Below, piece after piece: positions 19,492 to 37,526 of a DNA stretch of 64,000 nucleotides. Location: positions 1-64,000 of the IMG/VR virus record IMGVR_UViG_3300026522_000002, one strand, 5' to 3'. Positions within the stretch are counted from its first letter, which is position 1. Every line of letters begins with the position of its first letter. A model generated the notes under the pieces. That model had not been told where the DNA came from. It was given only the letters and a program-made list of their open reading frames with translations, and ran no database searches. The stretch is from a virus (taxonomy: Duplodnaviria; Caudoviricetes). The translations under genes and the position numbers were made by a program.

Positions 19492-19626
19492 TACTATTAC
19501 CAAGATTCGAACTTGGATTAACTGCACCATATATGGCCGTTCTATCTTTATGGAGAACGCCTTCCTCTCCTTCCGTCCGACATTTTATCTCGCGGCAGTG
19601 GTATTCCAATTCCCACTCATAATAGT
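19492..19626 (-). ncRNA. tRNA-like RNA with ~65-nt insert replacing the anticodon loop
   Basis: Acceptor ACTATTA/TAATAGT-A; T-arm CCAAG-TTCGAAT-CTTGG; ACTGC/GCAGT stem encloses a large insert. Confidence 0.7.
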
Positions 19627-19824: not shown

Positions 19825-19952
19825 TGGGATAGAGCAGAGTCGAACTGCCCAATAGTACAATAACACATTATTTATAAACAATCTAAAATCCAACCATCGA
19901 CGTGTTTTTATGGTATTGTTTACTTTAAGGTTTGTACTATTCCGGATATCCC
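19825..19952 (-). ncRNA. D-armless tRNA-like RNA with a long central stem
   Basis: Acceptor GGGATA/TATCCC-A; 10-bp AATAGTACAA/TTGTACTATT stem; T-arm GGCAG-TTCGACT-CTGCT. Confidence 0.72.
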
Positions 19953-29775: not shown

Positions 29776-30417
29776 TTAGTCAGTTACAATGATAACTTCC
29801 TTGCTTGCAGGAGCAGCCTTACCTGGGAGATTTACTACCACGGGCGTGGGAGTGTCTTCAGGGTTAGTACCCTTAGTCAACTGATCGTAATACTCCTTGG
29901 ACTTCTTGTTGTTCTCGTTAATAGCCGAGTCAACCTGAGCGATTGCCTTGTTGATCTCCTCGCGGAGCTTCACAAGACGCTCTTTCTCATCATAGTTGAG
30001 AACGTTTACCTTCTCAACGAGTTTCTTAGCGTCAGCGAAGATGATGTTCTTGTCGCCAGTAAGAGCCTTGCCGAGAGCATCCTCAGTTACGTTAGAGAAT
30101 GTCTTACCATCAGAACTGATAGATACAGACACTTCGTCTTCAGTATCCTTATTCAGGATCACCTGAGCGTCACCGAGAGCGCCATTAGCCAGTTGTACAC
30201 TGAGAATGTCGTGACCTACTACGCGGAAACGACGAGGGGTACGGTTGAGGATTAAGTCCACATTACCGTTACGTTCAACTTCTACTTTTCGCTTTTCGAA
30301 GTCGAGAATCGCAGCCCGTGCTTCGGGCTTAAAGAACTGGGTACCAAGAGTACCACCAATGATACGAAGATCAGGGCGGCATGACTCAGCCACCTTGCTT
30401 AAATCTACTTTTTCCAT
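29776..30417 (-). CDS. Hypothetical protein (likely highly expressed)
   Basis: 213-aa ORF with biased codon usage. Confidence 0.8.
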   Translation of the reverse strand: MEKVDLSKVAESCRPDLRIIGGTLGTQFFKPEARAAILDFEKRKVEVERNGNVDLILNRTPRRFRVVGHDILSVQLANGALGDAQVILNKDTEDEVSVSISSDGKTFSNVTEDALGKALTGDKNIIFADAKKLVEKVNVLNYDEKERLVKLREEINKAIAQVDSAINENNKKSKEYYDQLTKGTNPEDTPTPVVVNLPGKAAPASKEVIIVTD

Positions 30418-30469
30418 TTACTTATCCTATTTGATATCGTGGTTGATTCCACCAACGATAAGTTAAACA

Positions 30470-32340
30470 TGTTTGAATTCCGTATTCTGCATACGGGTTT
30501 TTATTTTTGTTGTTCAATACTTATTTTACGTTACGATTGCTGTTCTAATGTTTAGCACGCTTTCGTCATAGGCTAGTTATACCCCAAGGGATATAACGGG
30601 GATCCAACGGTAGGATCATCCAGGCCCGTAATCTATGGCGTTTTTTAAAGCTTTGAATGTCGTATGTGTATAATCAAATACTAAGTTTTTGAACATGATT
30701 TTTAGAAGTATAAAAATTATGTGATTTTACCCACTAAGCGCTCTACTTATCAGGAAATAAGGGAGGGTTCACTAGCTGAGGTAATTCCACATTGTAGATA
30801 AAAAGATTTGTTTTGGTTGATATATCTTCGATATTTTCCCGTTTTTGCAAAGACGTATCTTCCTGATTTACAGTTTACTCTGGTGCCGTAAGTTTATTGC
30901 GCTGGCTTACGGGCCTCGTTTCCTACTTTTGTGCTTTTGGGTGCTTGCGTGAGGAGTACGCTTCATTATCGGACGATCTCGGGACTCCAGAATCCTTCAC
31001 AGACCTTACGGCTTTTTAAGACTTTGCTGTCCCTTTGTTTATAGTGCACGAACACTGGGGAGTTCAACCCATACACATAGTTTCTTGTCACCCACTTACC
31101 TTGCTTGTCACACACCTCGAGACAGGAGGTAGTGATCTACCTGCATACGCTTCGAGCACTGCGTCTAATGGCTACAGTAAGCTGCCCATCGATTTTTGTG
31201 TATTCGGCTCTATGCTTTCCACCCACATGAGTTGCTGCTCAATGCTTCGTTTCGTTTCGCATTCTGCCTAAATTATTTCACAGTTACGGTTGGCACTCGA
31301 CTTTCTCCGATCAGTTCCACTACTTACAACGTAGGTTTTCCTAGGAGGGAACAGTCAATTTTGTTAAACATGTTATCATCATTCTTTGTTGTATTTTGTT
31401 TTCATTCAAAATCTAATACGGATATACGCATACGACAACAGTCTTTTTTTCATATCTTCATCACAAAAAGAGGTATAAATATGCGGCACCATTTCGAAGG
31501 TACTTGCTAATACAAACACGTAAGTATAATGCGCTTTCTCAACTGGGTGTGAGAGTCTGAATATACTCGCGTATAGATTTGAGTTTTTGGCTATCACGTA
31601 ACCACCGAGGGGTGTAAGGTTTTTATCCTTACTACCGAACATACACTTGTTACGCCTAAATAACTTATGTATGGAGAATCAGCCATATGTACGCGGGCTC
31701 GTTCCGCTGAGGCGGGGCCTTCCACCTCCTAATCATTTACTTTTATATAACCGCTTGAACGATCAAAGCCTGGCGGTCTATACTCCATATTAAATCAGCC
31801 GTATTACCCTCTTACTCCCCTCGTGTTAGACGCCGAGAGGCACTGGATTTGCACCAGTTTGGACTTACCTAGGCTACGTAGTTACGGTACGCATTCAGTT
31901 AGAACTAATCTGAATCTCCATTAATACTTCTGTATAACTTTTTCGCTCCTTCATAATGAGTTTGGACCTCATGAACACTAAGCTCGGCTAAATGACATAT
32001 CATACTTATTGTGGATGCTGTGCCTTGGTATGTGCGATTACCTTCATCGCTTCCCTGGTCTCGGCTAAGTATGTGGCAACTCGTGTTTCGTTATACTGTG
32101 TTTATATGTCATTACACAGCATGTCCGATACGGTACACTGTTTTGCTCCTTTTGAGTCTTATGCGTCTTCTCTTGAATACATCACCAGACGGTTCTCATG
32201 CATCAGAATAGGGTTTTAGTACTACGCTCTCCCTAATACAAAGGAGTTTTTCACGCTCCAATGTCTTCCATCCTACCTTTTGAGCTCTATTTTCAAGCTT
32301 TATCGCCATCAGAGATGGTTTACATATTCTCGGATCAAGT
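30470..32340 (-). ncRNA. ~1.9-kb ORF-free structured region, candidate giant ncRNA(s)
   Basis: No credible ORF in either code. Many hairpins plus long-range pairs such as CTGTTCCCT/AGGGACAG. Confidence 0.5.
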
Positions 32341-32342
32341 AG

Positions 32343-32478
32343 ATTGTTACTTACCATATCTCCCGTATTAAAAATCTCAGCTATTCTCACGAACCACTGA
32401 GACGAGCTTAATAATAACATTCAAACTAAACAAGTATGCCTTGTGGGAGAGCGGGGAGTCGAACCCCGCAGTAACAAT
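32343..32478 (-). ncRNA. Circularly permuted tRNA-like element
   Basis: ATTGTTACT-G-CGGGG-TTCGACT-CCCCG-CTCTCCC-A comes before its partner GGGAGA-TATGGTA-AGTAACAAT. Confidence 0.68.
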
Positions 32479-32504
32479 AGTTGTATCAGGGCTAATGAGA
32501 CCCT

Positions 32505-32897
32505 TTATAGCGATACTGAATCTGTAATTGTTTCAGGCATAATTATTGTAGGCTTGGATATACGTATGGTGTCTACATCTATCGGAGCCTTACGTTCAAC
32601 TGTGTCTGGAACAAATACTTTCTTCGTTCTCCACTTAGTTTTATACACTGTCTTTGTGGAGCCAACACAGCATATTTCAAGAGGGATTGTATCGCGAACT
32701 GTATCGCGAACAACCGTTAGACCGACATTGTTCGTATGACCTAACAAAAGGTCTTTCGGATACTGCATAATTACCGGTGACGGCATTGTTGCAGCGACTG
32801 CTGTTTTGTTATATAACGCGGCATGTTTTGTTGCAGCGATGGTGAATCCACCAATGGCGAAACAAATACAGCAGATGATAGTTGTAATTTTCTTCAT
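32505..32897 (-). CDS. Secreted/membrane hypothetical protein
   Basis: Signal-peptide-like N-terminus; VRDTVRDT repeats. Confidence 0.7.
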   Translation of the reverse strand: MKKITTIICCICFAIGGFTIAATKHAALYNKTAVAATMPSPVIMQYPKDLLLGHTNNVGLTVVRDTVRDTIPLEICCVGSTKTVYKTKWRTKKVFVPDTVERKAPIDVDTIRISKPTIIMPETITDSVSL

Positions 32898-36696: not shown

Positions 36697-36756
36697 GCGG
36701 AGATCGAGGATTCGAACCTCTACACTCCTTGTTAATAATAACGTTAATAATCTCCG
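36697..36756 (-). ncRNA. Minimal tRNA-like element downstream of the tmRNA coding piece
   Basis: Acceptor CGGAGAT/ATCTCCG; T-arm GAGG-TTCGAAT-CCTC; short AT-rich interior. Confidence 0.62.
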
Positions 36757-36759
36757 TCC

Positions 36760-37030
36760 TCACTTTCGTAGTTAGCACGTGACCACATCAGGCTGCCAGC
36801 TTGGTGTAGTCAGCAATATAAGAATTGCCAGTTATATAGTAATATCCCTTAATGTATTTCCTTCCACATACGATCAAAACCTGTCAGGCCCGATTGTAAC
36901 CTTTTTCGCTCATGTCGCCGCCAAACTTAGCATTTACCGAATATCGCTATGGTTACATAAAAAGTCGCGTCGGGTGGACCTGGGGGTAGTCGAAACCCCG
37001 TCTCGCATGCGTATCTCATACAGGATAAAA
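36760..37030 (-). ncRNA. ssrA: Circularly permuted (two-piece) tmRNA
   Basis: Acceptor piece ...CGCATGCGA-GAC-GGGGT-TTCGACT-ACCCC-CAGGTCC-A (ends 36975) comes before the coding piece GGGCCTG-ACAGGTTTTGA-TCGTATGTG (starts 36891). G3.U70 present. Tag ORF 36829-36788 follows ATAACT: GNSYIADYTKLAA-TGA. Outer ends are approximate. Confidence 0.92.
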
Positions 37031-37526
37031 CTTCGATAGAAACATAATTGATCAGATTATGCTCTAAACAGCTCATAAATGGCTCTCTAAGCCACGATCT
37101 CCTTTAGGGTAGTTAGCTACTCCATCCTATTGGAAAAAGTGTCTCAGAGAGCGGTTTTGAAAAGCTATTATTCTTGTTGATACAGAGGCCACAGGCAGAC
37201 TTAAAGTTCGGCAATGGTATGCATCCGCATTTTTTGATAAGAATATGAGTACTTCGTACGCAAGGCTAACTTGATGACTAATACTGGCTCCAGGCTCACA
37301 TATTCTGGTTAATTGATCAAAATGGACCTATAGTTTTACATCCGTAGGTTCAGATGCTATATACCCCTATTACTGGCTTAAAGCTCTCAATAGATGTCGT
37401 TATTTCGACTATAGTTTCCGCTCATACATCTTACACGTCCGACTCAAACGGCCCCCGATGTAACTATTGCAGTAAGGATTACTGGTTCAAGACTCTCAAT
37501 CCTCGGTATAGTTTCCTTACGCTAAA

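Follow-up and report, generated by a model that had tools for sequence, protein, structure and literature searches.

A circularly permuted tRNA-like domain inserted in a giant non-coding RNA of crAss-like phages

Within a giant non-coding RNA of a crAss-like phage of the gut or rumen we have identified a conserved RNA domain of circularly permuted tRNA-like connectivity, which has neither a D arm nor an anticodon arm. The domain (hereafter, the module) consists of a 6-bp acceptor stem stacked on a 6-bp T-stem, with a GG linker in place of the D arm and a connector helix of 7-9 bp in place of the anticodon stem. It is compatible with an L shape, as it combines a 12-bp acceptor/T stack, a canonical T-loop and the GG linker, and at the acceptor end its strands are joined by a variable spacer. 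We consider it highly probable that this is a real and conserved fold. The overall best explanation of its presence, to which we give about as much credence as doubt, is that a permuted domain was grafted into the giant RNA and is processed in such a way that the giant RNA comes to consist of two pieces.

The stretch of DNA that was analysed (the window, 64,000 nt) is the first 64 kb of a complete phage genome of 100.6 kb with direct terminal repeats. The nearest annotated relatives of this phage are the crAss-like Suoliviridae/Oafivirinae phages cr272_1, cr273_1 and Bohxovirus, and the unclassified record Dulem virus 42 is also near it. A common gene order is found among these relatives: a sigma factor, a protein of ~470 aa, a small signal-peptide protein, an ORF-free stretch of ~2.1-2.2 kb, and two proteins of ~200 aa. 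In the window the ORF-free stretch, which corresponds to the giant RNA, lies at about 30417-32500 on the minus strand and contains no credible ORFs; reading TAG as glutamine or using translation table 4 yields no long ORF across 30417-32500, and the region is therefore not hidden coding sequence. An ORF-free RNA of ~2 kb is common to the Oafivirinae-type crAss-like phages, and a search of the giant RNA against Rfam matched neither GOLLD nor ROOL. The small ORF upstream of it (32505-32897, minus strand) encodes the signal-peptide protein and has a homologue in cr272. This ORF has 42 homologues in public assemblies (48-95% identity), and one cluster holds 97 member sequences, which indicates that the phage lineage is common in the sampled material; a search of viral_contigs with the flanking 467-aa protein found no relatives. 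The window also carries ordinary tRNAs, two group I introns, and the genuine permuted tmRNA of the phage, called by ARAGORN at 36697-37065 with its G3.U70 pair at 36891/36976. Genes for a TROVE (Ro60) protein, a CCA-adding enzyme, SmpB or a tyrosine integrase were not found in the complete phage genome.

In the window the module comprises 136 nt on the minus strand (32478-32343; all its elements are given in minus-strand order), and its elements follow one another in permuted order. It opens with the 5'-proximal strand of the connector helix, ATTGTTACT (32478-32470), and closes with the 3'-proximal strand, AGTAACAAT (32351-32343), the two forming nine Watson-Crick pairs; this helix, which corresponds in position to the anticodon stem of a tRNA and to P2 of tmRNA, links the module to the giant RNA, into whose body its 3'-proximal strand runs. 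The opening strand is followed by the T-arm (32469-32451), with a 6-bp stem (GCGGGG/CCCCGC) and the canonical T-loop TTCGACT (32463-32457), and then by the 3' acceptor strand TCTCCC (32450-32445), a discriminator A (32444), and a CAA tail (32443-32441). A spacer of 76 nt (32440-32365), which is the part predicted to be excised, closes the acceptor end: it contains a hairpin with a GUGA tetraloop (32402-32375) and then a T-rich TTTAA stretch directly before G1, and a terminator scan of the spacer found none. The 5' acceptor strand GGGAGA (32364-32359), whose first nucleotide, G32364, is the predicted end of an RNase P product, forms six Watson-Crick pairs with 32450-32445, and it is joined to the connector helix by the D-loop-like linker TATGGTA (32358-32352), which has the conserved GG and no D stem.

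An earlier note on this DNA had described a tRNA-like gene here, with the T-arm and the 3' acceptor strand lying upstream of GGGAGA and with an extra 9-bp helix. Every element that it named is present on the minus strand at the coordinates just given, and the 136 nt, when folded, form exactly the three-way junction expected of them (-49.5 kcal/mol, z = -5.2, none of 200 shuffles as good), a junction that persists when the sequence is folded in a context of 301 nt. By our estimate, one 6/7 complement of the acceptor strand is to be expected by chance within a few hundred bases, so that the sequence of the window alone could not settle whether the module is real.

Comparison with relatives provides the decisive evidence. 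A conserved 18-mer from the ORF-free region retrieved 64 viral contigs, and a pattern built on the shared flank retrieved one further bearer of the module, the metagenome contig L069. The same permuted layout is present at the same site in L049 and L069. The acceptor helix is GGGAGA/TCTCCC in the window, GGGGTG/CACCCC in L049 and GGGGTA/TACCCC in L069, such that pairs 4-6 read AT/GC/AT, GC/TA/GC and GC/TA/AT, respectively. The T-stem is GCGGGG/CCCCGC in the window, TGTAG/CTGCA in L049 (5 bp, and hence a stack of 11 rather than 12 bp) and GAGTGG/CTGCTC in L069, while the connector helices of L049 and L069 are GCTATCTT/AAGATAGC and ATGTTGT/ACAACAT. All of these helix positions form Watson-Crick or G-T pairs in the three modules, and the sequences of the T-stem and connector are almost wholly different with the pairing kept. 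The linker reads TATGGTA in the window, CCGGG in L049 and CATGGTGG in L069 (TCCGG in an unpermuted paralogue described below), and the spacer measures 76, 46 and 94 nt, respectively. As MAFFT sets the L049 connector out of register, the pairs were tabulated for each sequence by script. Folded in isolation, the modules of L049 (z = -7.5) and L069 (z = -2.7) give the same three-way junction. The flanks of the window and L069 (200 nt) are 91% identical and the helices of the module have nonetheless been rewritten between them, which argues for selection on pairing. The conservation of pairing, proposed in the earlier note as a check, is thus borne out in both relatives through double changes that keep complementarity; the covariation is convincing yet statistically thin, coming from three sequences of one origin. 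In L069, at 732-717 (minus strand), there is a tandem 8-nt duplication in which GGGGTACA occurs twice, offering two candidate 5' acceptor strands; it is the second duplicate that gives the linker CATGGTGG, which resembles the linker of the window.

The layout is rare. A strict descriptor of the permuted layout, run over 3.79 Mb of phage sequence, gave three matches, which are the modules of the window, L049 and L069 only. A search of viral_contigs with the exact T-arm/acceptor pattern yielded no relatives; a loose pattern (TTCGAYTC-N7-8-CCCACAA) showed no permuted layout among the matched stretches listed, at least 115 in number; the pattern AAAAGGTAGGATGGAAGAC gained more relatives and no further module; and the phage records of INPHARED contained no copy of the module.

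The three sequences also bear on where the 5' acceptor strand lies. The partner chosen by cmscan was GGGAGAG at 32233-32227 (minus strand), a perfect 7/7 complement of CTCTCCC, and together with a partial match to RF04321 this could be read as a second two-piece tmRNA-like gene. GGGAGAG is, however, kept in L049 and L069, whose CACCCC and TACCCC cannot pair with it, which refutes the pairing of cmscan, and the motif is kept as well in relatives without any T-arm. In addition, the RF04321 match reaches 13.8 bits against a gathering score of 47 (E = 9.6), G3.U70 is missing, and no tag was detected by ARAGORN, so that we give this reading next to no credence. Nor does an element acting as DNA, either an attP core derived from a tRNA 3' fragment or a miniature transposon with 9-bp inverted repeats, agree well with the comparison. 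Fragments made of a T-arm and a 3' acceptor strand are typical of att cores, and a perfect 9-bp inverted repeat does flank the module in the window; these inverted repeats, however, differ completely in the three phages and yet are complementary in each, which points to selection at the RNA level and not to a transposase site. The 5' acceptor strand moreover covaries with the 3' strand, all copies stem from one insertion, and the genome has no tyrosine integrase; a DNA-level element is accordingly very improbable.

The position of the module in the giant RNA is defined by conserved structure on both sides. Upstream lies HP1, the first conserved hairpin of the giant RNA (GGTCTCATTAGCC, 32503-32489, minus strand), which has a covarying stem: RNAalifold applied to 17 relatives without the module gives six pairs, five of them with changes on both sides, and the 7-nt loop CUCAUUA (32499-32493) is invariant. 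Downstream, ACTTGATCC at 32340-32332 (minus strand) forms the 5' side of the following conserved helix, in which it pairs with GGATGGA near 32278-32265; the insertion site is bounded by it on the downstream side. The module therefore lies inside the conserved RNA rather than in front of it, as an insertion in the single-stranded linker between HP1 and the second helix, and the view of the earlier note that it is a separate gene heading the non-coding region has to be abandoned. The distance between GGTCTCATTAGCC and ACTTGATC is 149 nt in the window and 122 nt in L049, compared with 13-22 nt in most of the other loci whose two flanking blocks could be identified. The upstream ORF extends as far as HP1 in each of the three bearers (in the window, where it was read directly, its TAA stop codon at 32507-32505 lies in the HP1 stem), as opposed to an ORF-HP1 gap of 40-100 nt in the relatives checked.

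Two further observations concern the structure of the giant RNA itself. The HP1 loop CUCAUUA resembles a CAU anticodon loop with U33, but with U at the position of A37, and AUGAG in the invariant ATGAGAACCGTCTGG (32199-32185) and in GAUAAUGAA (30971-30959) are possible conserved partners of this loop. In the core of the giant RNA, at 31860-31841 (minus strand), a conserved hairpin with a covarying stem follows GTAAGTCC; its loop is TTCGATT, which is T-loop-like, in many relatives (including L003, L006, L022 and L033) and TGCAAAT in the window.

The distribution of the module is that of an accessory. Among the loci recovered with the 18-mer, a search of the 700 nt upstream of the anchor motif found no T-arm in any besides the window and L049, and the module is missing from all other loci examined (more than 60). 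A tree built from the flanking 200 nt places the three bearers in one clade (support 93/94), so that a single gain suffices to explain the distribution: one insertion, in the common ancestor of this small clade, brought the module in. As it is absent from more than 60 loci, it cannot be the general means of defining the 5' end of this family of giant RNAs, and it is an accessory rather than the way in which the family makes its 5' end. A different insert of 92-95 nt, which is not tRNA-like, occupies the same linker in another clade (L033, L043, L050, L053, L057, L059 and L068), showing that the site tolerates expansions.

Relatives of the module exist as free-standing genes. The earlier note had remarked on its likeness to an element at 19825, and the paralogue found there (19952-19822, minus strand) has indeed the same fold in unpermuted order: GGGATA, TCCGG, a 10-bp helix with a 71-nt insert, the T-arm GGGCAG/TTCGACT/CTGCTC, TATCCC, A, and CAA. 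Over 29 positions of T-arm and acceptor, it agrees with the three modules at 22-24. Other free-standing copies are located in L104 (955-1026), an Oafivirinae relative that lacks the module and whose linker, TATGGTA, is identical to that of the window, and in the viral contigs L162 (3652-3757) and L168 (5754-5859); ARAGORN called none of these four elements. Their common traits are a 6-bp acceptor, a GG linker, a 6-bp T-stem, a TTCGAYT loop, an A-CAA tail, and the lack of an anticodon arm, and the module likewise displays the GGG...CCC acceptor of 6 bp, the GG, the 6-bp T-stem with TTCGAYT (5 bp in L049) and the A-CAA. The mismatch that the earlier note placed at 7:66 (T.C) is better described as part of this 6+6 arrangement, in which acceptor and T-stem, of 6 bp each, are stacked: the counterpart of the pair G32469-C32451 is likewise G-C in L069 and the paralogue, and is C-G in L162. 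Free-standing genes have the normal order, a variable insert at the tip of the connector, and free acceptor ends; the module is circularly permuted relative to them, with the giant RNA where they have the insert. To judge from these sequences, the module is homologous to the free-standing tRNA-like genes of this phage family and appears to be a permuted member of the phage's own 6+6 family, and it is likely that it arose as a grafted derivative of that family.

A source for the permuted order is at hand in the window, where tRNA-like genes stand head to tail (for example, ...CGACCGC-A-CAA-CT-GGGATA at 19967-19947). A segment that reaches across the boundary from one tandem copy into the next would give exactly the permuted order, and we infer that the module may have originated in this manner. 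In the complete genome of L049 (G001), BLAST detected no unpermuted paralogue of the 19952 type. Further units composed of a T-arm and an acceptor strand occur in the window at 19516, 19982, 20096, 26351, 39478, 42439, 42894 (minus strand) and 50853 (plus strand), none of which was called by ARAGORN or Rfam; in several of the eight a 5' strand that matches lies 64-130 nt upstream, a non-canonical distance, and most end in A-C-N-A.

The same tandem arrangement, with its acc3'-ACAA-CT-acc5' junctions as a ready source of permuted order, would also suit a tolerated passenger, that is, a piece of a tandem-gene junction copied into a permissive linker, folded so as to spare the giant RNA, and without any tRNA-related role. 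The variability of the site (13-22 nt in most loci, and the unrelated insert of 92-95 nt in the L033 group) and the confinement of the module to one small clade are in keeping with such a passenger. The features by which tRNAs are recognised (T-loop, GG, GGG/CCC and A-CAA) have all been kept, however, while the helices were rewritten, and we therefore think a passenger rather unlikely.

Known RNAs offer several points of comparison. A search of the modules of the window, L049 and L069 against Rfam at E <= 10 gave no match apart from the partial match to RF04321 (E = 9.6). The two-piece tmRNA described by that model (Caulobacter type) has the same order of elements, including a GG D-loop without a D stem and a P2-like helix, and the spacer of the phage's own tmRNA, at about 85 nt, compares with 76 nt in the module. 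The tmRNA precursor is matured by excision of its spacer. The module differs in having G3-C70 (in the window, L049 and L069) instead of the alanine identity pair G3.U70, in its stack of 6+6 rather than 7+5 bp, in its lack of a tag frame and of pseudoknots, in its RF04321 score of 13.8 bits, and in being an accessory insertion in a 2-kb RNA that continues downstream of it. It is not a tmRNA, and the earlier note had rightly seen neither G3.U70 nor a tag; ARAGORN reports a tmRNA only at 36697-37065. Nor is the module a tRNA: neither ARAGORN nor Rfam called it as one (RF00005, including permuted genes of the Cyanidioschyzon type), and instead of an anticodon arm it has an open connector helix of 7-9 bp.

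YrlA, a Y RNA of tRNA-like form found in bacteria and phages (RF02553; Chen et al. 2014, PMC4201824), is likewise a permuted tRNA mimic carried on a larger RNA at the position of the anticodon stem, and its acceptor is closed by a loop. Compared with YrlA, the D arm of the module is reduced to a GG linker of 5-8 nt without a stem, no Ro-binding stem was seen, the carrier RNA measures 2 kb, and the phage has no TROVE gene; the module, which has no D stem, no match to the model and no TROVE gene beside it, is not a YrlA. As an ensemble, the nearest analogy is given by GOLLD: tRNAs are reported to be embedded in a linker of GOLLD RNA, and tRNA islands lie beside GOLLD and ROOL (bioRxiv 10.1101/2024.12.08.627333; PMC5737381). 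In both cases a giant structured RNA borne by a phage includes, covalently joined within a variable region, a unit of tRNA type; the GOLLD unit, however, is a complete tRNA placed in line, whereas the module is permuted, lacks an anticodon, and branches off via its connector helix.

How might such a domain act? We tentatively favour, at somewhat less than even confidence, a reading suggested by the tRNA-like features of the module and by precedents, in which the spacer would be excised by RNase P and the tRNA 3'-end enzymes to leave a two-piece RNA with tRNA-like ends. Under this model, the whole region would be transcribed together with the upstream gene for the small protein, whose stop codon lies within HP1. 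Host RNase P would cut 5' of G32364, the host's tRNA 3'-end enzymes would trim to A32444 and add CCA, and the spacer of 46-94 nt would be lost. A short 5' piece, made up of HP1, the T-arm and the 3' acceptor strand, would remain held to the 2-kb body by about 15 base pairs, and both new ends would be buried in the tRNA-like fold, so that the body would be freed from the mRNA and its ends shielded from nucleases.

A 12-bp acceptor/T minihelix is the minimal substrate of bacterial RNase P, RNase Z and the CCA-adding enzyme. The structural prerequisite for processing, such a minihelix with a single-stranded 3' tail, is present in the module. Processing is further favoured by the tail itself: the single-stranded A-CAA is identical in the three modules (as well as in the paralogue, L104 and L162) despite an adjoining spacer that is barely alignable among the modules and has been replaced outright in L049, and it matches the 3' flank of most tRNA genes of the phage; most of its tRNA and tRNA-like genes have the same A-C-N-A tail. 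The abutment of the upstream ORF on the RNA in the three bearers, set against the gap in the relatives checked, speaks in the same direction. A precedent exists in the permuted tRNA-like domain of Mycobacterium smegmatis YrlA, which RNase P cleaves in vitro and which in vivo is found cleaved and with CCA added; by contrast, cleavage was not observed for Salmonella Typhimurium YrlA and Deinococcus radiodurans Yrn1, whose acceptor stems are closed and shorter (PMC4201824). On the other side, the phage neither encodes the CCA nor brings a CCA-adding enzyme of its own, the stack of L049 has 11 bp, and more than 60 relatives do without the module.

The spacer also holds a motif of 12 nt, TCGTGAGARTAG, in its hairpin that is common to the window and L069, which would be odd for a segment that is merely discarded. 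The main rival takes up this point: the domain would stay uncut and covalently closed, as in S. Typhimurium YrlA, forming a tRNA-mimic branch whose acceptor/T-arm elbow would bind a tRNA-recognising factor of the host or the phage (a modification enzyme, a nuclease or a defence toxin) or would dock another RNA. The partial preservation of the spacer hairpin with its GUGA tetraloop between the window and L069 suggests retention, and the topology (T-arm, loop-closed acceptor, then the D side) is matched by YrlA. The T-loop-like hairpin used by the giant RNA core itself and the tRNAs reported in the GOLLD linker would also fit an uncut branch. Such a branch would leave aside, however, that a single-stranded A-CAA and a GGG start are placed exactly as in genes that need their ends processed, that the length of the spacer ranges from 46 to 94 nt, with a complete replacement in L049, and that the phage genome lacks a Ro60/TROVE gene; with these points weighed, we hold the uncut domain to be unlikely, if the strongest of the alternatives. 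Returning to the two-piece reading, its furthest extension, in which the processed 2-kb RNA would bear a genuine acceptor arm ending in CCA, chargeable by a host synthetase, seems to us improbable. If true, the giant RNA would be tethered, as a two-piece molecule, to an aminoacyl acceptor able to engage EF-Tu or the ribosome, or would alternatively display a tRNA handle, as has been proposed for GOLLD cages, and a chargeable arm would give the first functional foothold for a giant phage RNA.

To our knowledge, GOLLD and ROOL have had their shapes solved and have no known function, and why they are repeatedly linked to tRNAs is unexplained. In the present case, a different phage RNA of 2 kb has gained a permuted, anticodon-less tRNA-like arm at a defined site, and it can be compared among close relatives that have the arm and others that lack it. 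The module also documents a route by which a permuted RNA domain may arise from tandem tRNA-like genes. If its ends are indeed cut and tailed with CCA, the enzymes of tRNA processing would be used to mature or protect giant RNAs, and the two-piece design would extend from tmRNA and one Y RNA to a third, much larger class of RNA.
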